The translations under genes and the position numbers were made by a program. The notes beneath the pieces are model-generated. The model was given only the letters and a program-made list of their open reading frames with translations. It searched no databases and had not been told where the DNA came from. Of a stretch of DNA of 64,000 nt, positions 1,849 to 55,182 are shown in pieces. The stretch's first letter is position 1. Each line of letters opens with the position of its first letter. This stretch comes from an uncultured Planctomycetales bacterium. GTDB taxonomy: Bacteria; Omnitrophota; Gorgyraeia; Zapsychrales; Fredricksoniimonadaceae. The stretch covers positions 846,290-910,289 of the forward strand of contig CAZNDZ010000001.1 of assembly GCA_964572155.1 (NCBI GenBank). The letters are read 5' to 3'.

Positions 1849-2898
1849 ATGGATTCAGAATTGCTGACAATTTTAGAACAATTAGAACGCGATAAAGGCA
1901 TTGATAAAGAAACATTGATCAGCGCCGTCGAGCAAGCTGTTGCCTCAGCTGCCAAGAAGTTGTGGACCGTTGATAAAGAACAAGACGTGACCGTGACCTT
2001 GGATCGCAAGACAGGTAAATTATCTGCGTTTGCTGGAGAACAAGAGATCCATTCTAGCGAATTTGGTCGCATTGCCGCCCAAACTGCGAAACAAGTGGTC
2101 ATTCAAAAGATCCGTGAAGCTGAAAAAGATGTGGTGTTCAATGAATTTAATGTCCGCCAAGGCCAAATCATTTCAGGGGCTGTTTACCGTTTTGAACGCG
2201 GTAACATCGTCGTTGATTTAGGTAAGACCGAAGCGTTGATCCCACGCGGTGAGCAATCAAATAAAGAAGAATTCCGCCAAGGTGAACGTATCCGCGCGTA
2301 TTTACTTGAAGTCCGCAAGGATATCCGTGGCCCACAAATCATTTTATCCCGTTCTAATCCAAACTTTGTGAAGCGTTTGTTTGAATTAGAAGTACCAGAA
2401 ATTTATGAAGGCATCATTGAGATCAAAGCTATTGCTCGTGATCCAGGTGAACGCACCAAGATTGCTGTGTATTCCAAAGATGAGAAGATTGACTGCGTGG
2501 GCGCCTGTGTTGGGATGCGCGGTTCTCGCGTTAAGAACATTGTATTGGAATTACACGGTGAAAAGATTGACATTGTGCGCTATTCAGAGGATATTAAGGA
2601 GTATATTCAGGCTGCGTTGTCGCCTGCTGAGATTTCTCAAATGCAGCTGATTTCAGATGAAAAACGCGTCAATATCATCGTGGATGAAGATCAGTTGTCA
2701 CTCGCCATCGGAAAATACGGTCAAAATGTCCGTTTAGCGGGTAAATTGGTTGGGTGGGATTTAGATATTTATTCAGCCAAGCAATGGGAAGAAAAACAAA
2801 AGAATGCAGACGCTCAAGATACGACGGGTTTAACATCTACAAAGGCAGAAACAAAGCCTGCGGATGAAGATGAAGCCCAAGAAGAAGAGGATGCATAA
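1849..2898 (+). CDS. nusA: transcription termination/antitermination factor NusA (no AR1/AR2 C-terminal repeats)
   Basis: N-terminal NusA domain, S1 and tandem KH domains recognisable (…GACVGMRGSRVKNIV…, …IGKYGQNVRLAGKL…); acidic C-tail; precedes infB. Confidence 0.9.
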   Translation: MDSELLTILEQLERDKGIDKETLISAVEQAVASAAKKLWTVDKEQDVTVTLDRKTGKLSAFAGEQEIHSSEFGRIAAQTAKQVVIQKIREAEKDVVFNEFNVRQGQIISGAVYRFERGNIVVDLGKTEALIPRGEQSNKEEFRQGERIRAYLLEVRKDIRGPQIILSRSNPNFVKRLFELEVPEIYEGIIEIKAIARDPGERTKIAVYSKDEKIDCVGACVGMRGSRVKNIVLELHGEKIDIVRYSEDIKEYIQAALSPAEISQMQLISDEKRVNIIVDEDQLSLAIGKYGQNVRLAGKLVGWDLDIYSAKQWEEKQKNADAQDTTGLTSTKAETKPADEDEAQEEEDA

Positions 2899-2924
2899 AC
2901 AATATTAGGAAGGTAACATAAGTC

Positions 2925-5384
2925 ATGCGCATTGCCGATTTAGCCAAAGAATTAAAGATCACCGAGAAGCGTGTTTTAGATAAGATCAAAGATCTAAAAC
3001 TACGCACCAAGGATGGTTTAGAAATCACCATTGTCGTCGAAGAAATCGTGCGCGATGCTTTTGCCGATGAAGGCATTGGTTCAAAGGTTGTGGAAGTAGA
3101 AGCGCCAAAGAAAACAGTGAAAAAGGCTGTAGCTAAGAAGACGACCACGGCCAAGAAAACAGCTACGACAAAACCTGCTGCCAAAAAGACAGCGGCTTCT
3201 AAGACAAAGTCTGATTCTAAAAAGAAATCACCGATTGTTGAAAAGATCATTGTGGCTAAGTCAGGGCCATTGCCAAAGGTTGATCCTCCAAAACCAGCGC
3301 CAGCACCTGTTAAGGTTGAAGCACCTAAAGTTGAAGCGCCGAAAGTTGAAGCTCCCAAGGTTGTTGCACCAACTAAGCCGGTGGTGGTTGAAGCAGCAAA
3401 ACCTGAAGCTCCCAAAGTTGATGTTTCTAAAATTGTAGTTCCTGCTGAAGTTGTTGCCGTTGATCCATTAAAGAAGAAGGTGCATGAACCATTTGTTACG
3501 GTAAAGCCATTGGCTAAGAAACGCCGTAAGTTTGAGAATGAGACGAGCAGCACAGGTTCTAGAGATCATAAGCCATCCTCGTCGATTGATACAGTGAATC
3601 AAGCCCAAGCAAGTCAAGGCCCGTTGGTTGATGTGGAATTATCCATTCCAATTTCCGTTAAAGATTTTGCCGCGCGCACTAATCAAAAGTTAAATGTTGT
3701 TTTGAAGCGTTTGCTCGACATGGGTGTTTTTGCCAACATCAATCAAAACCTAGGCGAAGAATTGGTTGGAAAATTAGCGACTGCGTTTGGCATTAATATC
3801 ATTAAGAGTAAGACACAAGAAGAGACCGTTGTTGATTTGCATGCGCAAGAAAAAGATGATCCTTCAACGCTCAAACCACGTGCGCCAGTTGTTACCTTTA
3901 TGGGTCACGTTGATCATGGTAAGACATCGTTACTTGACAGCATTCGTTCAGAACGCGTTGCACATGGTGAGCATGGAGGTATTACCCAGCACATCGGTGC
4001 ATATTCCGTCAGTGTTCCAAGTGGCGGGCGTATCACATTTTTAGATACCCCAGGTCACGAAGCATTTACCGCCATGCGTTCCCGTGGTGCACATATCACC
4101 GACATGGTGGTCTTAGTTGTGGCTGCGGATGAAGGCATTATGCCTCAAACCGAAGAAGCCATTGACCATGCACGTGCAGCCAATGTTCCAATCATTGTTG
4201 CGATGAATAAGATGGATAAAAAGAATGCCAATCCTGATAAAGTGAAGAAACAATTGGCAGATCATGACCTAGCCGCTGAAGATTGGGGTGGTAAGGTTGG
4301 GGTCGTCGGTGTTTCAGCGTTGACAGGGGATGGTATCAATGATTTATTAGATCGTATCTTGCTTGAAGCAGAAGTTTTGGAATTAAAAGCTAACCCTGCT
4401 AAAAAAGCATCGGGTATTGTTATTGAAGCGCATATTAGCAAAGGCCGTGGTGCGATCGCGTCCATGATTGTTCAAAGCGGGACATTGCGTGAAGGCGATG
4501 CCATTGTGGTTGGTCCTTATGCAGGTCGTGTGAAGGCCATGTTGGATGATCATCATCGTCCCATCAAACAAGCTGGCCCATCCATGCCGGTTGAAATCTT
4601 AGGGTTATCCGAAGTTCCTGCAGCGGGTGATATGTTCTATGTTGTGGCAGATGAAAAGACAGCGCGCGAAATTGCCGCAACCCGTCAAGAAAAGATCAAG
4701 AATGAAAAATTGTCTGGTACCGCAAAGGTATCATTAGAAGAGTTATATGCGCAAATTCAAGAAGGTCATATTAAAGAAATGCGCGTGTTAATTAAAGGTG
4801 ATGTGCAAGGTTCTTTGGAAGCGCTCAAAGAATCATTGTCCAAGATCCCAACCAATGAAGTTAAATTGCGTTTCATGCATTTAGGTGTTGGTGATGTTAA
4901 TTCATCCGACGTTATTCTAGCGTTAGCATCGCAAGCCGTCATCATTGCCTTTAACGTTGGCATTGACACCAAAGCCCGTCAAGAACTTGAAAAAACACCG
5001 GTCGATGTGCGTCAGTACCGCATCATTTATGACGCGGTCGATGATGTCCATAAGGCCTTGGAAGGTTTACTCGCACCAAAACTCAAGCGTCATTTCGTCG
5101 GTAAAGTCGAAATTCGCAATGTGTTTAAATTAAGCAAGAGTGGTATTGTGGCAGGGTGTCATGTACAAAAAGGTAAGATCCGCCATAAATCACAAGTTGA
5201 TGTGTTACGCAATGGCGCGGTTGTGTTTACGGGTCATTTAAGCAGCTTGAAACGTTTCAAAGATGACGTTAAAGAAGTCGGTGAAGGTTTCGAATGTGGT
5301 ATCACGGTTGCTAATTTTAATGAGATTCAAGTCGGAGACATTATTGAAGCCTTTGACATAGAATCCATTGCACGTAAATTATAA
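2925..5384 (+). CDS. infB: translation initiation factor IF-2
   Basis: GTPase G1-G4 motifs (GHVDHGKTSLLD, DTPGHEAF, NKMD), low-complexity Lys/Ala/Pro-rich N-terminal region, C-terminal IF2 domains. Confidence 0.92.
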   Translation: MRIADLAKELKITEKRVLDKIKDLKLRTKDGLEITIVVEEIVRDAFADEGIGSKVVEVEAPKKTVKKAVAKKTTTAKKTATTKPAAKKTAASKTKSDSKKKSPIVEKIIVAKSGPLPKVDPPKPAPAPVKVEAPKVEAPKVEAPKVVAPTKPVVVEAAKPEAPKVDVSKIVVPAEVVAVDPLKKKVHEPFVTVKPLAKKRRKFENETSSTGSRDHKPSSSIDTVNQAQASQGPLVDVELSIPISVKDFAARTNQKLNVVLKRLLDMGVFANINQNLGEELVGKLATAFGINIIKSKTQEETVVDLHAQEKDDPSTLKPRAPVVTFMGHVDHGKTSLLDSIRSERVAHGEHGGITQHIGAYSVSVPSGGRITFLDTPGHEAFTAMRSRGAHITDMVVLVVAADEGIMPQTEEAIDHARAANVPIIVAMNKMDKKNANPDKVKKQLADHDLAAEDWGGKVGVVGVSALTGDGINDLLDRILLEAEVLELKANPAKKASGIVIEAHISKGRGAIASMIVQSGTLREGDAIVVGPYAGRVKAMLDDHHRPIKQAGPSMPVEILGLSEVPAAGDMFYVVADEKTAREIAATRQEKIKNEKLSGTAKVSLEELYAQIQEGHIKEMRVLIKGDVQGSLEALKESLSKIPTNEVKLRFMHLGVGDVNSSDVILALASQAVIIAFNVGIDTKARQELEKTPVDVRQYRIIYDAVDDVHKALEGLLAPKLKRHFVGKVEIRNVFKLSKSGIVAGCHVQKGKIRHKSQVDVLRNGAVVFTGHLSSLKRFKDDVKEVGEGFECGITVANFNEIQVGDIIEAFDIESIARKL
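3315..3374 (+). repeat. 4 x 15-nt tandem repeat (gttgaagcNccNaaa) encoding (V)EAPK repeats in IF-2 N-terminal linker
   Basis: Direct reading: gttgaagcacctaaa / gttgaagcgccgaaa / gttgaagctcccaag / gttgttgcaccaact. Confidence 0.6.
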
Positions 5385-9265: not shown

Positions 9266-10265
9266 TTATTTTGATTTATCCGCGTACGATTATCAGCTCC
9301 CAGAAAAACTAATAGCTCAATACCCATTAGCCAAACGCGATGATGCGCGCTTGATGGTGATCAACCGCAAAGATCAGAGCATAACCCATGATACATTTGC
9401 GAATCTCAATCAATGGCTGCCTAAAAAAAGTCTGATGGTTTTAAATGACAGCAAGGTCATTGCGGCGCGTTTGATTGGCCGTAAAAAAGATACCGAGGGA
9501 GAAGTTGAAGTATTTCTGCTAAATCCTACTGACGAAGATCAAACGTTTGAAGCATTGCTAAGGCCACTTAAGCGTATCAAAGAAGGTCAGATTATTGATT
9601 TTGGCAAAGGTCTCGAAGCTGTCCTTATTGATCGTGAAAAACGACTTGTGCGTTTTAATCAAAAAGATGTCCTAAACGTTATAGCCACCCAAGGCCATAT
9701 CCCATTGCCGCCTTACATCAAGCGCGATGATGAACAAAGCGATCGCATCAATTATCAAACCGTTTACGCCAAGCATTTAGGTTCCGTCGCAGCGCCAACC
9801 GCGGGGTTGCATTTTACAGAGCAATTAATGGATCAATTAAAGAATAACGGACATGATTTTGCCAAAGTGACGCTGCATATCAATTACGGGACATTCAAAC
9901 CCGTCGAGACCGACGATATACGCCAACATCCCATGCACGAAGAAATGTATCACGTCGATGCGAATACCTACGAGCGCATCAAACATCATCGCCCCATTGT
10001 AGCTGTCGGCACAACCGCCTGCCGCGTCTTAGAGTCAATCGCACAAGGCCGTCCACTAGAAGACAAGACCAATATCTTCATTTACCCAGGCTACAATTTC
10101 AAATCCATCCAATCTCTGATCACCAATTTCCACTTACCCAAAAGCACCCTGCTCATGTTAGTCAGTGCTTTTGGAGGCTATGATCTAATGCGCCGCGCCT
10201 ACCAAGAAGCCATCGCCAAAGAGTACCGATTTTATAGTTATGGTGATGCTATGTTGATCCTTTGA
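9255..10265 (+). CDS. queA: S-adenosylmethionine:tRNA ribosyltransferase-isomerase
   Basis: MSVNYFDLSAYDYQLPEKLIAQYPLAKRDDARLMV… and …HFTEQLM… QueA hallmarks. Confidence 0.9.
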   Translation: MSVNYFDLSAYDYQLPEKLIAQYPLAKRDDARLMVINRKDQSITHDTFANLNQWLPKKSLMVLNDSKVIAARLIGRKKDTEGEVEVFLLNPTDEDQTFEALLRPLKRIKEGQIIDFGKGLEAVLIDREKRLVRFNQKDVLNVIATQGHIPLPPYIKRDDEQSDRINYQTVYAKHLGSVAAPTAGLHFTEQLMDQLKNNGHDFAKVTLHINYGTFKPVETDDIRQHPMHEEMYHVDANTYERIKHHRPIVAVGTTACRVLESIAQGRPLEDKTNIFIYPGYNFKSIQSLITNFHLPKSTLLMLVSAFGGYDLMRRAYQEAIAKEYRFYSYGDAMLIL

Positions 10266-10294
10266 GAATAGCGTAGATATCACACATAAGTTTG

Positions 10295-10306
10295 CCCCTA
10301 TATAAT
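10295..10306 (+). promoter_or_regulatory. -10-like element (cTATATAAT) about 20 nt upstream of the paralog-1 start; no convincing -35
   Basis: TATAAT at 10301-10306 in the 61-bp queA/paralog-1 spacer. Confidence 0.25.
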
Positions 10307-10326
10307 CTATATGCTATTCTTTCCAC

Positions 10327-13300
10327 ATGTTTAAGAAGCTTTTAGCCCTATTTTTATGTGTATGCATGTGTCCAATCTCTCAGGTACGTGCACAGCCTGT
10401 GGTCTTGCCGGCACTTGGGACGATGGTCAATTTAAGCCCATCCGTTAATCCTTCTGTATTAAAAGGGATTAAAGTTCACTTAGACAATCCTTTAAAATTT
10501 GATTTCATTTTAGATCCAGGCAGTAATAGAGGCGCTACATCAGATGATGCAACTAAGCTGATCAGATATTTTTTAGCGGCTTTAACCACACCAGAAAATG
10601 ATTTATGGGTAAATTTAAGTCCGTATGAAAAAGATCGCATTGTTCCAAATAGCTTTGGTCAAACGGAAATGGGACGTGATCTTTTAGCCCAAGATTATCT
10701 ACTTAAACAACTCACGGCATCGTTGGTTTATCCAGAAGGGGATGTTGGTCGAGAATTCTGGAAGAGAATATACCAAGAATCTCCGAATAAAAATATTCCA
10801 GTTAATACGTTTAATAAAGTATGGATTGTTCCAGACAAAGCAACTATCTTTGAAAATGCTCAATCAGGGACGGCTTTTGTTACTGAATCAAGTCTAAAAG
10901 TTTTAACGGAGCAAGATTACCTAGCGGGTGAAAAGAATGCGTCATCTTCTACGTCTAAAGTTGTCCGTGACATTGTCATCCCGCAATTAACAAAAGAAGT
11001 AAATGAAGGAGCAAACTTCGCGTCACTCCGTCAGGTTTATCAAAGTTTGATACTCGCAACGTGGTACAAAAATAAGATCAAAGATAGTATTCTCAATCAA
11101 GTTTATGCGGATAAGAATAAAGTGTCTGGGATTAATATTGCAAATCCAAATGAAAAGCAAAAGATTTATGAACAATATCTACAAGCTTTTAAGAAGGGCG
11201 CCTATAACTATATCAAAGAGGAAAAAGATCCCATCACCCATAAAGTAACGCCACGTAAATATTTCTCCGGTGGTTTTAATTTAGCCATGACGGGAGTTAT
11301 TAAAATTGATAATAGCATGACAGCGACGCTACGAAATCGGTTGATGCAAATTGCGCGATTAATAACGGTCGGTGTGGTATTAACAGTTAGTCCAGTATCA
11401 ACCACATTAGCTCAAACGTTAAAGTTTCCTACACAAGCCAGTGAAGAAATAAAGTTTAAAGATTGGCAAGTACAACGTTTCTTCAGTCAAGCAACGTCAG
11501 GAGATGTTCAGGCTATTTCAAGGCTTACTGTCCTTAGTAAACGAGGGAATGAGGAGGCCATTGAGGCAATTAGACGATTAATTTATGTCGAAAATACACA
11601 GGTGAGTAAAACAGCGTTGGAAGCTTTTTTGGTGACACCATTAGATGGGGTGGAGCATGAGGTAAAAATTGTTCGCGATGCGATGCGTTTACAACATAAA
11701 GAGGCTAAAGATGCATTATCTCGATTGGTTAAAGCGGGAAATATTGAAGCATCGCAATATTTAATTTTTAATACAGAAATTAAGGATCCTGTTCGAGAAC
11801 AGGCATTTAAGAATTTATTATCTGTATTAACATCAAAGAATGCAAAGACTGTTGAATGGAGAGGTCTAGTTGATGCATTATTAAGATTTTATTCAAATGA
11901 ACCAAACAATGAAACATTGCGTTTAATACTTGAGAACTTAGCACATGAAGGTGATCTTTATAGCACTCTTGTAATAATCAAAAGCAAGTTGATCAGAATA
12001 GATGTAAATAAATTGGCTTTACATGTAATGGATTGGAATGGTGGTGACTCTGTCCTTCTTGATTATTATCAAACTGACCCTTCCGAGAATACGGTAAAGG
12101 CAATCATCAATTACTTATTCTCAACTAAACAAACTTTTCAGAATCTTTTAATTATTTTGAGCGATTTTAATAAAACCAAGGAAATCTTAGAATTGCCAGA
12201 ATATAAAGATAGAGTTCCTGAAAATCCTCGAGTTATTGTTTTACTTGGAGCGTTGGGTCATGAAAAATCATTTGAATTTGCCAAAGAAAATCAACCTGAC
12301 GAACTTAGTCGACTCTATTACTACCGTTTAGAGCTAACGGCAAGAAAAGGTGATGGAGAGGCATTAGATCGACTAGAAGAATTAGCTAGCGATGAAGAAG
12401 AGGCAGACAAAGATGCGTTAGCCATATTAGCGTATTTATCACAACGCAATGATGTGTCAGCAGAAGTAAAAGGGCGCATTAACAATTTTATTGATGACCA
12501 TTTTAAATTATTTGTTCCTATTTTTACTAAGGAGAATTGGCAAGATTATGCTAAAGATCCCAAACATAAGGCCAACATTCAAACACTATTTGAAGATTTA
12601 GAAACCAACCCAAATAGGTTGCTTGCTTTAGAATGGGCTGGTCTTTTGAAGAAAGAGCATGTAGCTCGGCATCCTTTTTCTAAAGAAATATTTGATTCAA
12701 TGCTAAGGAATTGGCCAGATATGCTGAAGATTTATTTTAAGCATAGTGATGACATTCACCCTGTTTTTTCTGTATTAACACAGAAGTGGCCACAGACGGC
12801 AATGTCAAATATTCTGCAACGTGAGCGGTCTGAACTTCAACAGGAGCTCTTGAAGCGTTTAAAAGATAATAATAATTTGGGTGCAATGGCTAATCTTTTT
12901 AAGACGGAAGAAGGAAAGTTGGCTTTTTTATTGCAGGCCTTAAAAGCAGAAAATCCGCAAGCATTGCCATTGCTTAAAAGCTTTGTGGAAGAAAAGCCTG
13001 ATAGAATAGAAACACTATACCACGTTTTTTCGACAGGTCTGGTCGGAACAAGTGTCGATCAATATTTTATACTAAATCCTCAATTAGAAAAAATATTATC
13101 AGGCGTGGACGTAAAGAATTTTAGATTCATCCGTCCTTTTGGCAATTTAGATAGAGAAGAAAGTGATCTGATCTTCATGGGTAATCGAAGCGTGCTTGAA
13201 TATGTATTAAAGGATGCCATTAATTCTAATGATATTGCTAACAAGCTTGTCGATATAGGTCCCCATGTTCCTGAGTCTTTGCTTAATTGGCTTAAGAATA

Positions 13301-14499
13301 TGGACATCACTCCGTATGCTAAAAATAGTGCCCTGCTTCGGATGTTCTTTTTAGTGGGAAATGCTCAAGCAACTAAGCTTATTCAAGACGGCGTATCCAA
13401 ACAAAATAATGATATCTTTGCGCCAGTTAATGTTTTGAATTTGACTGGGTTTGGAGATCCAATGTTTAAATCGCTTAGTTCAGACGCACAGGCATATTTG
13501 GATAAATTACGTAAAGACGGCATGGGTGATTTTAAATCGAATTTACGTAAGTCTGACACTCATCAAAGTAATCATATTTTATTAAAGTTATACCTAGCGG
13601 TTTTAGTAAATATGCAGGAACGTTTTCATCTTTTTGATTTTGAAACCTTTAAGAAAATTTCTACACAAATGATCGGAAGAATGACCCTAACCGTTGATTT
13701 GAATAATGCTAATTCGGGTTTTGAGTTTGGGTATCGTTTAATCTTAAATCTTGAAAGTATTGATGAAATGCTATTTGTTACTGGGCATGAGGTAGCACAC
13801 AATTTATTGTTTGCGATGACTAAAGATAAGATTGACGGCATCAAAGGTGATCCAAACAAGATTTTGCAGTATGGATCCATTCACGAGTATTTTGCAGATA
13901 TGGTGGGGTTTGCTTTGGTCAAAGATACCAAAGCCATAGACAAGATGATGCAACGTAATTTCTTATGTGAATTTTGTGCGGGCTTAAAGACAAAAGAGGA
14001 TTGGAAGGATCCGATGTCTAATGAAAATACAAGAGAAGTGCACTACATTCCTCGTTACAGCAGAGGGGCTTTCTTGTTAATGGCAAAGAATGCTGGCATC
14101 GAACCTGCTAAATTCTTAGCTGCTCAATTTACTGAGAATCAAAACCCAATTCTAGCTTATACCGGCACGTATGAAGATTTTTACCATTATTTCTTTTATA
14201 CATTGGCCTTAGGTCTGAAAGTTAATTATGAATATGATCCAACCCTTAATATTCCCTCTAATATTGAAAAGATGTTATCGCTGGCTAAAAAGAACGCTGA
14301 TAGCGCTCAATTAGGATTAAGTAACACAGGGGGGATTGATTTAAATTCCACGAATCTTAATCTTCAAAATGCTGGCTCTGCCATTAAATTTAATATTGAT
14401 TCTGCAATGTTAAAGCAATTACAAAATGCGGCTGGTTTTACGCCTACCATTACTAGCATGAAGCCGACGCAGGACTTATTACAATTTCTAGGAATATAA
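10327..14499 (+). CDS. giant secreted protein, family paralog 1 (1390 aa): signal peptide, conserved N-module, hydrophobic linker, HEAT-like helical repeats, HExxH zincin-like region, conserved C-tail
   Basis: Uninterrupted 4.17-kb ORF; signal peptide MFKKLLALFLCVCMCPISQVRAQ; HEVAH…SIHEYFAD at 13786-13898; collinear with 17431..21630; N-module and C-tail shared with 32917..34902 and 46994..50179. Confidence 0.8.
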   Translation: MFKKLLALFLCVCMCPISQVRAQPVVLPALGTMVNLSPSVNPSVLKGIKVHLDNPLKFDFILDPGSNRGATSDDATKLIRYFLAALTTPENDLWVNLSPYEKDRIVPNSFGQTEMGRDLLAQDYLLKQLTASLVYPEGDVGREFWKRIYQESPNKNIPVNTFNKVWIVPDKATIFENAQSGTAFVTESSLKVLTEQDYLAGEKNASSSTSKVVRDIVIPQLTKEVNEGANFASLRQVYQSLILATWYKNKIKDSILNQVYADKNKVSGINIANPNEKQKIYEQYLQAFKKGAYNYIKEEKDPITHKVTPRKYFSGGFNLAMTGVIKIDNSMTATLRNRLMQIARLITVGVVLTVSPVSTTLAQTLKFPTQASEEIKFKDWQVQRFFSQATSGDVQAISRLTVLSKRGNEEAIEAIRRLIYVENTQVSKTALEAFLVTPLDGVEHEVKIVRDAMRLQHKEAKDALSRLVKAGNIEASQYLIFNTEIKDPVREQAFKNLLSVLTSKNAKTVEWRGLVDALLRFYSNEPNNETLRLILENLAHEGDLYSTLVIIKSKLIRIDVNKLALHVMDWNGGDSVLLDYYQTDPSENTVKAIINYLFSTKQTFQNLLIILSDFNKTKEILELPEYKDRVPENPRVIVLLGALGHEKSFEFAKENQPDELSRLYYYRLELTARKGDGEALDRLEELASDEEEADKDALAILAYLSQRNDVSAEVKGRINNFIDDHFKLFVPIFTKENWQDYAKDPKHKANIQTLFEDLETNPNRLLALEWAGLLKKEHVARHPFSKEIFDSMLRNWPDMLKIYFKHSDDIHPVFSVLTQKWPQTAMSNILQRERSELQQELLKRLKDNNNLGAMANLFKTEEGKLAFLLQALKAENPQALPLLKSFVEEKPDRIETLYHVFSTGLVGTSVDQYFILNPQLEKILSGVDVKNFRFIRPFGNLDREESDLIFMGNRSVLEYVLKDAINSNDIANKLVDIGPHVPESLLNWLKNMDITPYAKNSALLRMFFLVGNAQATKLIQDGVSKQNNDIFAPVNVLNLTGFGDPMFKSLSSDAQAYLDKLRKDGMGDFKSNLRKSDTHQSNHILLKLYLAVLVNMQERFHLFDFETFKKISTQMIGRMTLTVDLNNANSGFEFGYRLILNLESIDEMLFVTGHEVAHNLLFAMTKDKIDGIKGDPNKILQYGSIHEYFADMVGFALVKDTKAIDKMMQRNFLCEFCAGLKTKEDWKDPMSNENTREVHYIPRYSRGAFLLMAKNAGIEPAKFLAAQFTENQNPILAYTGTYEDFYHYFFYTLALGLKVNYEYDPTLNIPSNIEKMLSLAKKNADSAQLGLSNTGGIDLNSTNLNLQNAGSAIKFNIDSAMLKQLQNAAGFTPTITSMKPTQDLLQFLGI

Positions 14500-14520
14500 A
14501 TTCTTACGCTAGTGAACTCT

Positions 14521-16372
<1,852 letters not shown>

Positions 16373-20400: not shown

Positions 20401-21630
20401 GATTTACAGCAAATGTCAGATGATTTTCCTAAAAATTTAAGAGATTATATCAAGGATATGAAAGATATTTCTCCGTACAAAAAGAGTGAAAGTTTAATGC
20501 GTATGTTTGTTCTGCTTGGGAACAAACCGGCTATTAGTGAGCTCTTAAAAGGTTTTCGAGTTGAAGAACCTTCGCTAATTAATACTGTTTATTTGGAATC
20601 ATATAATGATCCACGTATTCAAGCGTTCAAGAATTTATCAAGGACAACTTTGGCTGAGGTAAGAGCTCAAAATATCAGTGCCTTTAAAGAGGGCATTAGA
20701 AATATGAGTCCAAAGGAAGGTAATGAGTATATGCTGAAGCTGTATTTAAGTGCGCTTTATGATATTCAGGATCAATTCAACTTATTGGATTTTGAAATAT
20801 TTAAAGAAATTGCGGTGAAAATGATTGCTAGGATCTCTTTGTCGGTAACGTTGAATAATGCGAATTCTGGTTTTGAGTTTGGTTTTAACTTGTTGTTGCG
20901 TTTAAATAGCATTGATGAGCTGCTGTTTGTTTTGCATCACGAGCTTGCCCATAATGTTTTAGATGCAAAATTGTTAGATAGGAAAATCGATCGTTTTAAG
21001 CTTGATCAAAAGAAAAAAGTTCAAGTTGGTTCAATTCATGAGTATTTTTCTGACATTGTTGCATATGCGGCTAGTCAGGACGACAAGAAAGTGGCAAGGT
21101 TATTTGATGATAATTTCTTGTGTGATTATTGTAGGGCTGTGAACTTTTCAGATTTTAAACTTTTGCAAGAAGAAGTTCATGTTATCCCACGTACTTCATT
21201 AGCTTTATTTCGTTTCAAGGCAAAAGCAAAAGGTATTGATACGGCAAAATTCTTTGCTGAGTTATTTAAAAACCATCGTGAGAAAATTCTAAACTACTCG
21301 GGTGATTACACTAATTTCAATGATTATTTTATATACACTCTGGCTCTTCAATTAGGGGTTACATACACATATGATCCAAGCATAAATTTATCCGAGAACT
21401 TGGACAGGTTGTTAGATTTGCCAGTTCCCAATAAAGCCATGGCGGCTATTGATGGGGGGATTGACTTTAATACAGAGAATCTGAACTTAGTAAATCCTTC
21501 AGCAGGCGCTCAAATACATTTCAATGTGTCTGCTGATTTGCTTAAACAGTACAATAATGTTGCAGGTTTTATACCTACCATTAAGGCTGTGCAGCCACTA
21601 GTAGATCTTAATTCTTTTCTGAACTTATAA
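17431..21630 (+). CDS. giant secreted protein, family paralog 2 (about 1400 aa), full-length collinear with paralog 1
   Basis: 4.2-kb ORF; signal peptide MFIKIIAIALSVSLLPFTPVKA; N-module; HHELAHN…SIHEYFSD at 20938-21054; conserved tail …GGIDFNTENLNL…IPTIKAVQP…; start moved to ATG 17431 (track TTG 17425). Confidence 0.8.
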   Translation: MFIKIIAIALSVSLLPFTPVKAVEIVLPKPGAMLALTPSFSPAVLKGIKVHVNDPLRLEFIVAQGNDDNLAQEESSKLVKYFLASLATPEKDMWVNLSPYEKDRIVPNSFGQTEMGRDLLAQDYILKQITASLVYPENEIGKEFWRRVYQEASRKSVDISIPINTFNKVWIMPDKAVIQENVKTGTAYIKEATLKVMLEVDYLSTKKHVAASTDSATEIVRQMVIPQLTKEVNEGAHFAGLRQMYHAFVLAAWYKRKIQNSVLSGVYVDQNKTQGVTISNPFAKQEIYEQYLQAFKKGVFNYIKEESDPVTHQLIPKKYFSGGLTLNISQRLEINKAMTAAEAVGIIKQGLKLLTISVALTGAFTKPALAQVEVEDRPVFASSKDERDYELVMRLQERGLNGELAAIKRLEVLYRDNNISFALKALGKIAFSGDAQNSKSALELFLKSSLSSLKDFETLRSAIQLAHPESKDALIKFVESGNLDASFYLLRTSLTGDVKTKAMQNILAFLKRPDRFTSETQWTTLRIVLLEEFGRDKSNALIKEILQELAYLGTASVSSQVIESGLVELDSKRLVDSAKRMGSGDISLMKYYQHFPSKELLRSIIRFLFEADRQTLNLRGILADYNITKEILESPEFKDREPPEGNGFHRDSILILAAAGHRKSHELAEQHYSAGLVKYIYDRLYLTALKGELDSVSKLEEMAQDDDNAAIEIIYNISRNKSASDLIKQRFKSYIEDNVDLFKDLFDKGTWQEFGKDPKHKAIVDGLYEDVKTDPKVLVILYWLGLLTKEHIAYHPFSQDVIDALGSRLIDGLELYFSYDENPNELFRILAKKWGGYVVSNLMQPFRNVDKLELKKVFLKSLSRMNILEAMGYLKDDKEKLQLIVYALQENIPEAWGILKEYVQHNHNRAEYLYGMYVSGFISFGDEENKFVRGNIQIKDILANVDMSTFKTKDFFQGLDPEISQFIRIGNLSILDVALKLAITRPRVAEDLQQMSDDFPKNLRDYIKDMKDISPYKKSESLMRMFVLLGNKPAISELLKGFRVEEPSLINTVYLESYNDPRIQAFKNLSRTTLAEVRAQNISAFKEGIRNMSPKEGNEYMLKLYLSALYDIQDQFNLLDFEIFKEIAVKMIARISLSVTLNNANSGFEFGFNLLLRLNSIDELLFVLHHELAHNVLDAKLLDRKIDRFKLDQKKKVQVGSIHEYFSDIVAYAASQDDKKVARLFDDNFLCDYCRAVNFSDFKLLQEEVHVIPRTSLALFRFKAKAKGIDTAKFFAELFKNHREKILNYSGDYTNFNDYFIYTLALQLGVTYTYDPSINLSENLDRLLDLPVPNKAMAAIDGGIDFNTENLNLVNPSAGAQIHFNVSADLLKQYNNVAGFIPTIKAVQPLVDLNSFLNL

Positions 21631-24380: not shown

Positions 24381-24453
24381 GACCCACTAGCTCACCCGGT
24401 AGAGCACAACTCTTTTAAAGTTGGGGTACCGCGTTCGAGTCGCGGGTGGGTCA
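24381..24453 (+). tRNA. tRNA-Lys (anticodon TTT)
   Basis: Cloverleaf folded by hand: acceptor GACCCAC/GTGGGTC, anticodon stem CAACT/AGTTG with loop CTTTTAA, T-loop TTCGAGT. Confidence 0.85.
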
Positions 24454-24484
24454 CTTTTTTCTTTTGCTAGTTTGCATGGCTTTT

Positions 24485-24568
24485 GGGCGGGTGGCGGAAT
24501 GGTAGACGCGCATGCCTTAGGAGCATGTGGGGCGACTCGTGGAGGTTCAAGTCCTCTCCCGCCCACCA
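24485..24568 (+). tRNA. tRNA-Leu (anticodon TAG), long variable arm, CCA encoded
   Basis: Acceptor GGGCGGG/CCCGCCC, anticodon stem CATGC/GCATG with loop CTTAGGA, T-loop TTCAAGT. Confidence 0.85.
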
Positions 24569-24653
24569 GGCTTCGTCAAAAGGCTTTCGCGTTTGACTAT
24601 GCCAGGCTGGTGGCAGATGAAAAAATAATTTGAGTTCTTTGAATAATTTTTAG

Positions 24654-24659
24654 TATAAT
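24654..24659 (+). promoter_or_regulatory. TATAAT -10 hexamer ten nt upstream of tRNA-Gly
   Basis: tagTATAATa read directly; no clear -35. Confidence 0.25.
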
Positions 24660-24669
24660 ATTTTTCTAT

Positions 24670-24745
24670 GCGGCGGTAATTCAGTTGGTAGAATGCCACC
24701 TTGCCAAGGTGGATGCCATCGGTTCGACCCCGATCCGCCGCTCCA
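24670..24745 (+). tRNA. tRNA-Gly (anticodon GCC)
   Basis: Acceptor GCGGCGG/CCGCCGC, anticodon stem CCACC/GGTGG with loop TTGCCAA, T-loop TTCGACC, 3' TCCA. Confidence 0.85.
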
Positions 24746-52197: not shown

Positions 52198-53246
52198 GTC
52201 GATATGTTTATAGATTGATGACCGATGATGCGCAAAGTTTTTTTGATCATGCCATTAAGTTTTTCTTATGGTTGATGAGTTTATTGTATGGGGCTGTGGC
52301 GAAACTTAGGCGCTATGCGTATAAGGCTAGGCTATTGCCGTCGTTTCGTAGTCCGAAACCTGTTATCAGTGTTGGAAATATTACTTTAGGCGGGGTTGGT
52401 AAGACACCGCTAGTGATTGCCATTGTGCAAGCTTTGCAAGCGCGCAATATACGTGCGGCCGTGTTGATCCGAGGGTTTATGCCCAAAGATGCCTTGTTTA
52501 GCGATGAGGCCTTGATGTTAAAAGAGTCGCTGCAGGGTGTGCCCATCATCACGGGGGCGAATCGCCGTCAAGCCATCGAAGATTGTTTAAAACATCACGC
52601 CGTCGATGTTTTTGTCTGTGACGATGCCTTTGGCCATTTGCAACTTCAGCGTGATCTAAATATCTTGGCCATCAACGCAAGCAATCCTTTTGGTAATGCA
52701 CAGGTTATTCCTCGAGGGATATTGCGTGAGCCATTGTCAGCGCTTAAAGATGCAGATATGGTTGTCCTAACCAAAACCGATGCGCCACATGTCGATTTAG
52801 ATGGTATACAGCAACGATTAAAAGCATTGATACCAAGTGTCATGGTTGCGGCCTCAGCGCACGTGCCCAAAGCATGTGTGGAAATATTTGATAAAGCGCA
52901 TGTTGATCTAGAACATTTTAAAGGCATCTCCGTCGTCGGGTTTTGTGGATTAGGCGATACCAATGCTTTTAAACATAGTTTAAATACTGCAGGGTTTCAT
53001 GTGATCAATGTTTTTGGTTTTATGGATCATCACGTGTATAGCGAAGCAGATATGATGATGGTGCGTAAATATGCCCTCGATCATCAGGTGCAAATGATTG
53101 TAACCTCGCATAAAGATGCGGTGAAGTTAGCTGGTTTTAAAAATATTTGGGATGGTTTTAAAGTGTATTATTTGAAAGTTGATCTGGAAATTACTCATGG
53201 CAAAAATTTCTTCCTTGAAAGAATCATGTCTGTTATCCGTCATTAA
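52188..53246 (+). CDS. lpxK: tetraacyldisaccharide 4'-kinase
   Basis: …PVISVGNITLGGVGKTPLVIAIVQAL… P-loop typical of LpxK. Confidence 0.85.
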   Translation: MSVSRYVYRLMTDDAQSFFDHAIKFFLWLMSLLYGAVAKLRRYAYKARLLPSFRSPKPVISVGNITLGGVGKTPLVIAIVQALQARNIRAAVLIRGFMPKDALFSDEALMLKESLQGVPIITGANRRQAIEDCLKHHAVDVFVCDDAFGHLQLQRDLNILAINASNPFGNAQVIPRGILREPLSALKDADMVVLTKTDAPHVDLDGIQQRLKALIPSVMVAASAHVPKACVEIFDKAHVDLEHFKGISVVGFCGLGDTNAFKHSLNTAGFHVINVFGFMDHHVYSEADMMMVRKYALDHQVQMIVTSHKDAVKLAGFKNIWDGFKVYYLKVDLEITHGKNFFLERIMSVIRH

Positions 53247-55182
53247 GGTGTCGGCGGCTATATTTCGTTCGCTTCCCTTTACCCTGTCCTTAGCGATTGC
53301 TCGCGTAATTGGAGGGATGTGGTTTTATATTTTGTCTAAGAAACGCCGCATCATTTATGGGAATTTAAAAGCAGTATTCTCAACGGTCAAAACGCCTCAA
53401 GAAATCATCCACCTGACACAAGATAATTTCAAATTTGTGACGCAAAGTTTTGTCGATTTGATGTGCCTGCCTAAAATTAAAAAGGAAGGTTATGACAAGT
53501 ATGTGCAGTTTGAGGATCACGCCGTTGTCAAAGATGCCTTAGCCCAAAAAAAAGGTGTTATTTTCTTAGCCATTCATTCGGGCAATTGGGAGTTGGCAAG
53601 TCTCGTCGGTAGTTCGTTGGGGTATACCTATAATGTGGTTGCGAACGAACAATCAAAGACACCTAGGATCGATGATTTGCTTAATGTTTATCGTTCGATT
53701 GCAGGGGCAAAGATCATTGCGCCAGGGACAGGGGTGACGCGGGATATCATTCGCGCCTTACAAAATAATGAGATCGTTTCATTGGCTTTAGATCAAGGTG
53801 GTAAGGATGGAACGCCAGTTGAATTTCTTGGTAAGACAGCGTCAATGTCGACGGGAGCCTTGCGTTTAGGTTTAAAATATCAGACACCTGTTTGTCCCGT
53901 GTGGATTGTTCGTAATCCTGATGGTCGCCATACGTTGCGCGTTTTTAATCCGCTTGATTTAACTGGTTTGGAAGATACGCCAGCTGGATTAAAGCAGGCG
54001 CTTACCATGGCGGTAAAAGTTTTCGAGCCAAAGTTAAGGGAGCACCCGCAAGAATTCCTATGGTTTAATAAGCTATATAAATATTCTACGCAGAGTTATG
54101 TCTTAATCCTCGATGATGGCAAGACCGGTCACTTGCGTCAATCACAAGCCGCTGCAGCGGCTTTAACATCAGCACTAAAGAATCAAGGTAAGGCGGTAAG
54201 TGTTAAGTCCGTTCCCGTTGAGTTTCAAAATTCCCTCAAAGCAAAGTTATTTGCGTTATATACAGGCATACTATCGTTGACGGGTTTAGACGCCAATGAA
54301 GGCGAATTAGCATTCTTTTTGAAACCTGCGTCGTATACCGCGTTGCATAAAGAGCGAGGAGATTGGATCATTTCTTGCGGATCATCAACAGGTGGGATTA
54401 ATTTCTTTTTAAAGCGTTGCTTTGATGTGAAATCGATTTGCATATTAAAAGCGGGTTTGGTTGATTGGCGGCATTTTGATTTGGTTGTGGCTCCTCAACA
54501 TGATAAGAAGGATCAACGGGAGAGTCCTAAAGTTATTTATACCAAAGCCGCGTTGAATTTGATTAACCCGTCGTATTTAAAAGAGCAAGAAGAGCAATTG
54601 CTGCATCAATACTCGCATCTAAAGAATAATGTGCGTTTTAAGATAGGCGTCTTGATTGGTGGTAATACCAAGGGTGTTGAGTTTGACGAAGGACAAATGC
54701 GATTGCTAGTCAATAAGATTAAAGAAGCGGCAAGTCATTATAATGCAGATATTCTTATTACGACATCCAGAAGAACGCCTCCCGAGGTTGAAGCGGTGAT
54801 TGCTAAGGAGTTAAAGAATTTTGACCGAACAGCCTTGTGCATTATTGCCAATGTTAATAATTCTGCTTATGCGGTTGGCGGCATTTTAAGTTTAAGTGAT
54901 TTGTTGATTGTTTCAGGTGAAAGTATTTCCATGGTTTCGGAGGCGTTGGCGTCGGGAAAGCGAACAATCGTTTTTAAGCCGGGTGGTTCCTATGATGACA
55001 AGGGGTCATTAGATAAATTTGATCGTTTTGTCTTGAGCTTAAGCGATCAAGGTTTTATCCTAGCTTGCTCGATTAGAGAGATGTCGAATGCCATGGCCAA
55101 GATGATGAGTAATAAAATCACGTTAAAATCGTTACAGGATAATGCGCTCGTGCAAAAGGCATTTGAACGCATGCTTCAATAA
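53197..55182 (+). CDS. two-domain protein: N-terminal lipid A biosynthesis (LpxL/LpxM-family) acyltransferase fused to C-terminal ELM1/DUF1022-like domain
   Basis: N half …VIFLAIHSGNWELAS…EFLWFNKLY… (HxGNWE acyltransferase motif); C half …ITTSRRTPPEVEAV…, …SGESISMVSEALASGK… resembling ELM1-family TSRRTP / SVSMISEA blocks as I recall them; start ATG 53197 assumed. Confidence 0.7.
   Translation: MAKISSLKESCLLSVIKVSAAIFRSLPFTLSLAIARVIGGMWFYILSKKRRIIYGNLKAVFSTVKTPQEIIHLTQDNFKFVTQSFVDLMCLPKIKKEGYDKYVQFEDHAVVKDALAQKKGVIFLAIHSGNWELASLVGSSLGYTYNVVANEQSKTPRIDDLLNVYRSIAGAKIIAPGTGVTRDIIRALQNNEIVSLALDQGGKDGTPVEFLGKTASMSTGALRLGLKYQTPVCPVWIVRNPDGRHTLRVFNPLDLTGLEDTPAGLKQALTMAVKVFEPKLREHPQEFLWFNKLYKYSTQSYVLILDDGKTGHLRQSQAAAAALTSALKNQGKAVSVKSVPVEFQNSLKAKLFALYTGILSLTGLDANEGELAFFLKPASYTALHKERGDWIISCGSSTGGINFFLKRCFDVKSICILKAGLVDWRHFDLVVAPQHDKKDQRESPKVIYTKAALNLINPSYLKEQEEQLLHQYSHLKNNVRFKIGVLIGGNTKGVEFDEGQMRLLVNKIKEAASHYNADILITTSRRTPPEVEAVIAKELKNFDRTALCIIANVNNSAYAVGGILSLSDLLIVSGESISMVSEALASGKRTIVFKPGGSYDDKGSLDKFDRFVLSLSDQGFILACSIREMSNAMAKMMSNKITLKSLQDNALVQKAFERMLQ

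Follow-up and report, generated by a model that had tools for sequence, protein, structure and literature searches.

Two large proteins encoded in the window (the whole 64,000-nucleotide stretch of DNA that was analysed), P1 and P2, are probably Sec-exported proteins in which a gluzincin-fold domain (clan MA, subclan E; about 270 aa) stands ahead of a conserved C-terminal tail, as one of many modules set into a common, phylum-specific scaffold. Judged from its sequence, this domain would constitute a new and tiny family of clan MA(E) that is neither M4 nor M48, because it has no significant Pfam, NCBIfam or PDB sequence match. Approximately five relatives of the domain exist among roughly 15 billion proteins.

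Architecture of P1 and P2

All features described here lie on the forward strand. The P1 gene (10327..14499) encodes 1390 aa arranged as a signal peptide, a conserved head, a helical middle, the gluzincin-like domain and a conserved tail. P2 (17425..21630; 1401 aa) has the same architecture and is 44% identical to P1, and an ATG at 17431 may be its true start. P1 is flanked by queA and tgt, the latter starting 37 nt after it, and P2 sits between rnhB and rpsB, with rpsB following it. The GC content of P1 is 0.364 versus 0.428 in the rest of the window. A check for competing reading frames found no long ORF on the opposite strand, where the biggest is 84 aa. A protein identical to P1 (P0002) is present in the library of 1.84 billion representative proteins.

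P1 begins with a Sec-type signal peptide, MFKKLLALFLCVCMCPISQVRA (10327..10392), with its hydrophobic peak at aa 2-23 and a probable cleavage site after VRA. The same n-h-c layout is found at the N-termini of P1 and its three paralogs in the window (P2-P4), immediately preceding a conserved (Q/E)xVVLPxPGxMV, and these signal-peptide-like N-termini predict that P1 and P2 are Sec-exported. The conserved head follows (10393..11274; aa 23-316, ending in YFSGG), which is common to P1-P4 and to more than 1300 Omnitrophota proteins. The variable middle of P1 (11419..13503; aa 365-1059) looks helical-repeat-like on visual inspection, with motifs such as GNxEA. It is known from P1, P2 and the closest P2 ortholog (L001) only, and tblastn of the P1 middle against 79 Omnitrophota family loci recovered that ortholog alone. 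Between head and middle lies an internal hydrophobic segment (aa 339-363) that is borderline as a transmembrane anchor in P1, while its P2 counterpart falls below threshold. The gluzincin-like domain occupies 13504..14316 in P1 (aa 1060-1330) and 20656..21453 in P2 (aa 1078-1343); the two copies are collinear and 47% identical. Both proteins end in the tail that is common to P1-P4, a 56-aa GGIDLN...GFTPTI...FLGI sequence at 14329..14496 in P1 and a GGIDFN... version at 21454..21627 in P2. None of the four paralogs, scanned at full length, has a significant match in Pfam or NCBIfam.

The putative zinc site

The original prediction placed an HExxH motif followed by a conserved Glu in the two largest paralogs, and both motifs are where they were claimed to be. 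In P1, 13786..13898 translates in frame to HEVAHNLLFAMTKDKIDGIKGDPNKILQYGSIHEYFA, which includes HEVAH (13786..13800; H1154, E1155 and H1158) and EYFAD (13885..13899; E1187 and D1191). In P2, 20938..21054 translates in frame to HELAHNVLDAKLLDRKIDRFKLDQKKKVQVGSIHEYFSD, with HELAH at 20938..20952 (H1172, E1173 and H1176) and EYFSD at 21040..21054 (E1206 and D1210). Two details of that prediction must be amended: the gap between the second His and the Glu, given as about 24-25 residues, is 28 residues in P1 and 29 in P2, and an end at 13898 cuts the Asp codon of EYFAD after two bases, as the codon ends at 13899.

The flanking blocks that had been named as conserved (NNANSGFEFG, NFLCxxC and YTLAL) are likewise present and collinear in P1 and P2. 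NNANSGFEFG (13702..13731 in P1; 20854..20883 in P2) is a candidate substrate-binding edge strand and is identical in P1, P2 and L001. Its Ala is invariant in all five aligned sequences, and the aligned place in the family member L008 reads ENAFADF. The CxxC pair (CEFC, 13966..13977, in P1; CDYC, 21121..21132, in P2) supplies the sole cysteines of mature P1 and is kept in P2 and L001, but it is missing in the relatives P0003 and P0004. Farther downstream is a conserved His, H1239 in P1 (14041..14043) and H1252 in P2 (21178..21180), which lies 46-52 residues past the Glu in intact sequences. A His occupies this aligned column in P1, P2, P0003, P0004, L008 and L012, and also in L001 once its frameshifts are corrected.

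An AlphaFold2 model of P1 aa 1060-1334, built on five sequences, reached a pLDDT of 83.2 and a pTM of 0.84. A folded domain of about 250 aa had been proposed, and a model of about 270 aa at pLDDT 83 supports it. An earlier run with three sequences, on a longer and partly different stretch (aa 1000-1334), was poor (pLDDT 57). In the model HExxH lies in helix 86-113 (pLDDT of the block 89), as expected for MA(E) gluzincins, with the motif present in all homologs. The Glu of ExxxD, the candidate third ligand, lies in the next predicted helix, 117-139 (pLDDT 89-93), and the downstream His is at the start of helix 181-196. The model contains only two strands, each of three residues (61-63 and 74-76), the second approximately 20 residues ahead of HExxH, and the preceding 60 residues are helical. 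We provisionally scored this model as having the zincin fold of the solved gluzincins; its Foldseek matches in the PDB and BFVD are non-significant, none falling below E 0.1. AlphaFold may itself take guidance from the HExxH and ExxxD motifs, so that fold and sequence do not count as fully independent evidence.

Comparison with the M4 and M48 peptidases

When the family profile was aligned with thermolysin by hhalign (E 1.5e-4; thermolysin sequence verified against 1kei_A), HExxH fell on H142/E143/H146 and IHEYFAD on INEAISD, which contains E166 and D170. This register, together with the conservation of HExxH and the predicted fold, argues for the gluzincin arrangement that was originally suggested. 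The resemblance to thermolysin and the M4 family (and to M36 fungalysin) lies first of all in the order of HExxH and a Glu within an (N/H)ExxxD helix. In addition, the NNA of P1 and P2 precedes HExxH by 27 residues, much like N111-N112-A113(-F114) of thermolysin, and the conserved His some 50 residues farther on may be placed like His231; both are candidate structural equivalents.

By analogy, we hypothesize that Zn2+ would be held by H1154 and H1158 (H1172 and H1176 in P2) together with E1187 (E1206) on the next helix. E1155 (E1173) would serve as the general base that activates the zinc-bound water, giving the domain a presumed peptidase activity. D1191 (D1210) of ExxxD would take the part of thermolysin Asp170 in supporting the first His, H1239 (H1252) would stabilise the transition state in the manner of His231, and the NNANSGFEFG edge strand would bind the substrate backbone. 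Such an enzyme would most likely act outside the cytoplasm of the producer, its target being either the producer's envelope or a host or prey cell.

There are also differences from M4. The spacer is 28-29 residues instead of the 19 of thermolysin, and HEYF(A/S)D stands at 28-29 residues where the M4 motif NExxSD comes 20 residues after HExxH. The beta-rich N-terminal lobe of about 130 residues appears in the model to be reduced to the two short strands, with helices upstream. P1 and P2 lack an FTP/PepSY propeptide, and in these 1400-aa proteins the domain comes late in the chain, close to the C-terminus, with a helical region before it and the conserved tail after it. The Peptidase_M4 and M4_C profiles gave no match at E up to 1 for the whole proteins or up to 10 for the domain, and phmmer and hmmsearch against all PDB sequences found nothing relevant. 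Membership of M4 was rejected because its profile scores fail.

No Pfam family other than M48 (Ste24, HtpX, BepA) shows a signal for the domain. PF01435 matches four of the five members over the HExxH helix, all sub-threshold (best E 0.0019); for the P1 domain the score is 17.0 bits (E 0.0055), on a stretch of 23 residues, where the gathering cutoff stands at 20.3 bits. In M48 the third-ligand Glu comes some 60-80 residues past HExxH, whereas in P1 and P2 it is found at 28-29. Membership of M48 was rejected as well, on a score below the cutoff that covers 23 residues only.

A small and divergent family

An exhaustive HMMER search of the 1.84 billion representatives returned only P1 itself, P0001, P0003 and P0004, and all of them carry HExxH. 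A word index of 5.8 billion proteins, queried first with the domain and afterwards with the five-sequence profile, returned P0001 only. In the five-sequence alignment (21-47% identity) just eight columns are invariant, and half of these are the H, E and H of HExxH and the Asp of ExxxD. Homologs lacking HExxH would have counted against the original prediction; we looked for them, and the motif is kept in every detectable homolog. P0004 reads GLNEAFGD at the second motif, nearly the GAINEAISD of thermolysin, with its NEAFGD at a spacing of 22. The spacer between HExxH and ExxxD ranges from 6 residues in P0003 and 8 in L008 up to 29, and the shortest of these seem too short for canonical gluzincin geometry.

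Searching the ORFs of the wider family with the domain profile (hmmsearch) gave marginal matches only, to L008 and L012. These two Omnitrophota members of the family appear to carry divergent modules of this kind (E 9.5e-5 for L008 and E 4.5e-3 for L012). With tblastn of the P1 and P2 HExxH domain against the 79 family loci, L001 alone was recovered. In the literature searches, neither this family nor any Omnitrophota metalloprotease was found described.

One module of a head-and-tail scaffold

P1 and P2 belong to a scaffold family of more than 1300 Omnitrophota proteins, in which variable middles are enclosed by a head (about 300 aa) and a GGIDLN tail (about 60 aa). The tail is present in 41 fetched loci and in nearly all of 75 complete family members. 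The head has no Pfam or NCBIfam relative and, with its profile also run against the PDB, no sequence relative there. Two further paralogs in the window, P3 (32881..34902; 673 aa) and P4 (46994..50179; 1061 aa), have the head and tail of P1 and a different middle with no Pfam match, and a motif scan agrees with the earlier statement that they lack HExxH. The proposal of a common delivery scaffold with different cargo thus holds as a description of architecture, with shared ends and swapped middles; a delivery role may be supposed.

Elsewhere in the family the middles include M48 peptidase, GGDEF, radical SAM, methyltransferase, Zeta_toxin and ART domains, among others, as well as ART-PolyVal, AvrB_AvrC, PLDc_2, eCIS_core and HD. 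A genuine M48 module is found in L065 (E 3.4e-11), and eCIS_core matches another member (E 6.8e-5) and, weakly (0.37), the HEFAH module of L028. The HExxH module resembles the zincins of polymorphic toxins, polyvalent proteins and eCIS in being one slot of a modular, fast-diversifying exported family, whose members carry Zeta_toxin, ART-PolyVal, AvrB_AvrC, PLDc_2 and eCIS_core. P1 and P2 match none of the Tox-MPTase, MPTase-PolyVal and eCIS_core/DUF4157 profiles of Pfam. In contrast to those systems, the variable part of the scaffold is in the middle of the protein, between conserved head and tail, and not at the C-terminal tip. No immunity-like gene adjoins P1 or P2, whose neighbours are those named above, and no secretion or injection apparatus is linked within the window or adjoins any paralog.

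Exported multi-enzyme proteins of at least 10,000 aa have been described from Omnitrophota (bioRxiv 10.64898/2026.06.07.730766; West-Roberts et al., bioRxiv 10.1101/2023.11.21.568195). As those accounts present them, they share with P1-P4 and relatives the phylum and the plan of a signal peptide ahead of a series of enzyme domains that normally belong to the cytoplasm, among which methyltransferase, HATPase_c, HD, response regulator, radical SAM, HEAT/TPR and peptidases are listed (bioRxiv 10.64898/2026.06.07.730766). They differ in size, as P1-P4 and relatives span 0.7-3.5 kaa. In a term search of the main text and in section 8 of bioRxiv 10.64898/2026.06.07.730766, the conserved head and GGIDLN tail were not found, and no thermolysin-like module is described for the very long proteins.

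We tentatively propose, as a possibility rather than an expectation, that the family forms an Omnitrophota-wide exported modular effector system in which head and GGIDLN tail act as the export, anchoring or delivery scaffold and the zincin is one cargo. Under this proposal transfer into a host or prey cell would be implied, since many of the family enzymes could work only in a cytoplasm. The Omnitrophota producers are ultra-small and probably host-dependent bacteria.

Possible self-processing or decay

The modular setting would also allow a different role for the domain, namely that it cuts P1 and P2 themselves and frees the helical middle from head or tail after export. Self-processing has been proposed for the zincin modules of phage and plasmid polyvalent proteins, and some scaffold relatives do combine several unrelated enzyme modules in one chain, including ART-PolyVal and eCIS_core, as is typical of polyvalent or injected proteins. 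P1 and P2 have no other recognisable enzyme in the Pfam scan, and the domain always comes directly before the conserved tail (P1, P2, P0003, P0004 and L008). We nevertheless regard this role as unlikely. No cleavage site is known, and most family members lack any protease module, so processing is not a general requirement of the scaffold. Moreover, autoprocessing zincins are usually minimal, and a full, two-lobed, thermolysin-like domain (about 270 aa) that includes a conserved edge-strand motif would exceed them.

The evolutionary record bears on whether the domain is active at all. Comparison of P2 with its ortholog gives a pN of 0.23 and a pS of about 0.8, a saturated value at which dN/dS is not properly quantifiable, although it is well below 1. 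This points to purifying selection, as read from these sequences, over most of the divergence between the two. The earlier claim of such selection stands to that extent, yet the domain changes much more quickly than the genes around it, with approximately 62% amino-acid identity to the ortholog versus 79-99% for those genes and a dN 3-10 times theirs. The ortholog in L001 contains four 1-nt frameshifts beside some 20 intact neighbouring genes, and P1 is absent from that genome, which suggests that the protein is dispensable or that the L001 copy is decaying.

This rapid change, the frameshifted ortholog, the missing P1, the extremely small family and the implausibly short spacers of P0003 and L008 could all be accommodated if the domain were a dead or decaying zincin remnant that serves as a structural or binding module of a fast-evolving surface protein. 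We think it improbable that P1 and P2 are such pseudo-proteases. In dead zincins the Glu of HExxH or a ligand is usually the first residue to go, whereas H, E, H, E, D and the downstream His are all intact in P1 and P2 at 47% domain identity, and pN is far below pS. Least credible of all, and rejected here as largely refuted, is the view that there is no zincin domain and that HExxH and ExxxD arose by chance in a helical protein and were kept because P1 and P2 are recent duplicates: HExxH alone does turn up in 2.2% of shuffled P1 sequences of unchanged composition, and the sequence libraries offer no significant family match, but the composite HExxH-x(6,30)-ExxxD occurs in only 0.17%, HExxH survives in homologs at 21-25% identity with so few columns invariant, and hhalign recovers the thermolysin register.

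Implications

Thermolysin-clan zinc metalloproteases are classic secreted virulence and nutrition factors. Our preferred reading remains that P1 and P2 are exported proteins with a gluzincin-fold module, and a domain that escapes every profile library, and whose few relatives are scattered among billions of proteins, would be the founder of a new family at the MEROPS level. It would also offer a first functional handle on the Omnitrophota scaffold family, whose more than 1300 members are all annotated as ‘hypothetical’. The combination of a signal peptide, an invariant head, a swappable enzyme and an invariant tail suggests a phylum-specific means of enzyme presentation or delivery, which bears directly on the way these uncultured nanobacteria interact with their hosts or prey.

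A thermolysin-like motif in P1 and P2

The four paralogous signal-peptide proteins of the window share a head domain and a GGIDLN tail, and two of them, P1 (10327..14499, + strand, 1390 aa) and P2 (17425..21630, + strand, 1401 aa), carry near their C-termini an HExxH motif and a downstream glutamate where the original prediction had placed them. Translation gives HEVAH...GSIHEYFA in P1 (H1154/E1155/H1158 and E1187...D1191) and HELAH...GSIHEYFSD in P2 (H1172/E1173/H1176 and E1206...D1210). The glutamate is indeed spaced from the second histidine, by 28 residues in P1 and 29 in P2, although the distance had been estimated slightly too low. The flanking blocks NNANSGFEFG, NFLCxxC and YTLAL are collinear in the two proteins, as had been claimed, and a sequence scan bears out the absence of HExxH from P3 (32881..34902) and P4 (46994..50179), which have the same head and tail. 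No competing ORF lies on the opposite strand at P1 or P2.

Rarity and conservation of the domain

Pfam and NCBIfam scans gave no significant match for the domain, the best Pfam signal being Peptidase_M48 at 12-17 bits across 23 residues, under the cutoff, and PDB sequence searches found no relative. A word-indexed search of 5.8 billion proteins returned a single relative, P0001, and an exhaustive HMMER scan of 1.84 billion cluster representatives returned four proteins: P1 itself, P0001, P0003 (1264 aa, E 1.8e-9) and P0004 (1450 aa, E 3.4e-4). The last two have the head and GGIDL tail of P1 and P2. P0003 reads HETTH...GELLAD and P0004 HEQGH...GLNEAFGD, the latter block being nearly identical to the thermolysin signature. 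Divergent modules of the same type occur in two GTDB Omnitrophota loci, L008 (HEIGH, with ENAFADF before it; hhalign E 9.5e-5) and L012 (HELGH...RELVAD; E 4.5e-3). A five-sequence alignment, at 21-47% identity to P1, retains just 8 invariant columns, among them the two histidines and glutamate of HExxH, the aspartate of ExxxD and the alanine of the NNA block. A further histidine (H1239 in P1, H1252 in P2), ~46-52 residues past the glutamate, is kept in all intact sequences.

Predicted fold, mechanism and classification

With a three-sequence input AlphaFold2 produced a poor model (pLDDT 57); the five-sequence input gave a confident one for P1 aa 1060-1334 (pLDDT 83.2, pTM 0.84). In this model a long helix (model residues 86-113) carries HExxH and the next one (117-139) the Glu and Asp of ExxxD, with two short strands upstream (61-63 and 74-76, the second being FEFG) and a helical lobe downstream. 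A Foldseek search of the model against PDB and BFVD found nothing significant. Aligned by hhalign to thermolysin (a sequence identical to 1kei_A), the family profile places LFVxxHExxHN on DVVAHELTHA and GSIHEYFSD on GAINEAISD (E 1.5e-4, 37 columns), and because of this register the proposed ligands and catalytic residues correspond to thermolysin H142, E143, H146, E166 and D170. Conservation, model and register together uphold the gluzincin interpretation, with a predicted zinc site, and it is very probable that the domain has a gluzincin fold and that its active-site motif is intact.

We propose that the domain is an exported, thermolysin-type zinc endopeptidase. On the same three lines of evidence, Zn2+ would be bound by H1154, H1158 and E1187, E1155 would act as the general base, and D1191, as its thermolysin counterpart suggests, would orient H1154. 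By analogy, H1239 may stabilise the transition state and NNANSGFEFG may form the substrate-binding edge strand. We consider it likely that the domain is an active peptidase working in this way; that it is instead a self-processing module, the same motif acting on the protein that carries it, is unlikely.

The domain shows the defining features of clan MA(E) that were tested. Profile tests for membership of M4 and of M48 both failed and the beta-rich lobe of M4 is absent; we therefore regard it as a new, very small family.

A CxxC pair (CEFC, 13966-13977, in P1; CDYC, 21121-21132, in P2) supplies the sole cysteines of the mature proteins, ~27 residues past the proposed glutamate ligand. It is kept as CNYC in L001, the closest related contig (syntenic, from metagenome JGI 3300056831, Ga0558120_11481), which has a P2 ortholog, but not in P0003 or P0004, and its region is the lowest-confidence stretch of the AlphaFold2 model (pLDDT 67-76). 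Its role may be to form a disulfide bond or to bind a second metal.

Selection and possible decay

Genes neighbouring the P2 ortholog in L001 have 79-99% protein identity to their window counterparts, whereas the ortholog itself (L001 6934-11132) has only 60-77%, and P1 is missing between queA and tgt. Four single-base frameshifts interrupt the ortholog, and two or more of these fall in runs of G (GGGG, GGG), whereas all of the ~20 housekeeping genes around it are undamaged. Either the gene became a pseudogene recently or the assembly is wrong locally. Between P2 and this ortholog the protease-like segment has a pN of 0.23 against a saturated pS of ~0.8, which indicates that purifying selection acted on the domain through most of their divergence. 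This much of the original prediction stands, but the domain evolves several times faster than neighbouring genes, and its copy in the L001 lineage may be undergoing decay, or may reflect misassembly.

HExxH and ExxxD are separated by as few as 6 (P0003) and 8 (L008) residues and by as many as 29. The shortest versions, HETTHHWKGVGELLAD in P0003 (aa 1029-1044) and HEIGHNLLPNIASEFGAD in the L008 ORF (aa 1130-1147), appear to leave no room for the helix-loop-helix geometry of canonical gluzincins; they may have degenerated or may recruit a different ligand. In L008 another candidate, HLLGELMG, is found at the normal spacing from HExxH. A pseudo-protease is quite improbable. A chance motif is very improbable indeed. 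Composition shuffles of these proteins yield HExxH in ~2% and HExxH-x(6,30)-ExxxD in ~0.2%.

Genomic setting

The window is a stretch of core chromosome whose genes are all on the + strand, as are 47 of 48 ORFs of at least 150 aa; the minus-strand ORF (2837..3553), which overlaps the infB ORF, is unlikely to be a gene. All 2-kb bins but one have positive GC skew. Gene names were read from Pfam hits, except L19 and EF-Ts, taken from the syntenic L001 gene calls. Upstream of P1 lie, in order, a class II aminoacyl-tRNA synthetase, nusA, infB, a Trp/Tyr-type aminoacyl-tRNA synthetase, scpA, ruvB, spoIID and queA; between P1 and P2, tgt, trmD, L19 and rnhB; between P2 and P3, rpsB, tsf, pyrH, frr, PTS genes, metK, ahcY and pfk; between P3 and P4, a YhcG nuclease, fba, ilvC, leuA, aroE, a prepilin peptidase, aroK, dprA, topA and xerC/D; and downstream of P4, kdtA, lpxK and LPS-core glycosyltransferases. 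Three tRNA genes (Lys-TTT, Leu-TAG, Gly-GCC) occupy 24381-24745, and several LPS genes are apparently fused, one joining a lipid A acyltransferase to an ELM1-like domain (53179-55182), the other GT4 to GT9 (55182-57269). Each paralog is a single insertion, alone among housekeeping genes, and no immunity-like or secretion gene adjoins any of them. Their GC content (P1 0.364, P2 0.358, P3 0.378, P4 0.386) is clearly below the 0.428 found in the rest of the window.

A constant scaffold with variable middles

All four N-termini have a typical Sec signal peptide followed at once by a conserved (Q/E)xVVLPxPGxMV. The ~300-aa head domain (10393-11274 in P1, 17494-18390 in P2, ~32960-33900 in P3, ~47080-48000 in P4) ends in PRKYFSGG and is far more conserved than the remainder of the proteins, with ~90 invariant columns over 13 sequences, in stretches such as WVNLSPYE.DRI, TEMGRDLLAQDY.LKQ, NTFNKVWI.P and KEVNEG.NFA.LRQ. 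It has no relative in Pfam, NCBIfam or PDB sequences. GTDB genomes hold 124 relatives, and the 79 loci fetched belong to MAGs that bear the labels Omnitrophota, Omnitrophica or 'uncultured Planctomycetales', or a generic bacterial one. At E < 1e-10 the head matches more than 1300 proteins, none with a source name that gives a real function. This distribution places the organism of the window in the Omnitrophota. Directly past the head, P1 has a hydrophobic segment, LMQIARLITVGVVLTVSPVSTTLAQ (11341-11415; Kyte-Doolittle 1.73), that looks like a second signal peptide or transmembrane helix; weaker equivalents, terminating in ALAQ or VHAQ, are present in P2, P0003 and P0004 and missing from P3 and P4.

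The C-terminal tail of ~56-70 aa (14329-14496 in P1, 21454-21627 in P2, ~34720-34899 in P3, ~49960-50176 in P4) follows the pattern GGIDLN..NLN....G..I.F......L......GF.P.I..I.P...L..FL and was found by tblastn at 41 loci. In the form GGID[LFM] it terminates nearly all 75 complete family members among the fetched loci (700-3500 aa). It contains no hydrophobic anchor. Possibly the tail acts as an unfamiliar type of sorting or attachment signal.

Between head and tail, the P1/P2 middle region with its protease-like domain recurs among the fetched loci in L001 only. In the middles of 72 members, Pfam scans detected methyltransferases, HEAT and TPR repeats, GGDEF (E 3.8e-45), response-regulator receiver, radical SAM with B12-binding, PLD-like (PLDc_2), HATPase_c, HD, histidine phosphatase (His_Phos_1), ART-PolyVal, PPDK and PEP-utilising domains, ABC1 kinase, HIT, AvrB_AvrC, Zeta toxin (Zeta_toxin), eCIS_core and, in L065, a true Peptidase_M48 (E 3.4e-11). 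The L028 protein (10013-16315, 2100 aa), which may be the family member matching eCIS_core, has three HExxH modules, HEYVH and two near-identical HEFAHTLTT repeats; in L061 and L073, HEFSH near aa 1184 has a membrane-like, hydrophobic setting that resembles M50 site-2 proteases. The scaffold thus bears at least four different kinds of HExxH module.

The proposal of a common scaffold with different cargo therefore holds as architecture, head and tail being constant and the middles varied. That the scaffold 'delivers' its cargo we infer from the signal peptides and from cargo types whose activity would require a cytoplasm. Normally cytoplasmic or toxin-like cargo (L013, L065, L028 and other L002-L080 loci) sits oddly beside Sec signal peptides. 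For Omnitrophota proteins of at least 10 kaa, a preprint describes a domain repertoire similar to that of the family middles (bioRxiv 10.64898/2026.06.07.730766); the head and tail were not found in its main text, by term search, or in its section 8.

The domain represents a new and divergent family of metalloproteases, not a novel principle. It offers an entry point into a large family of unannotated, possibly effector-like proteins in an uncultured phylum.
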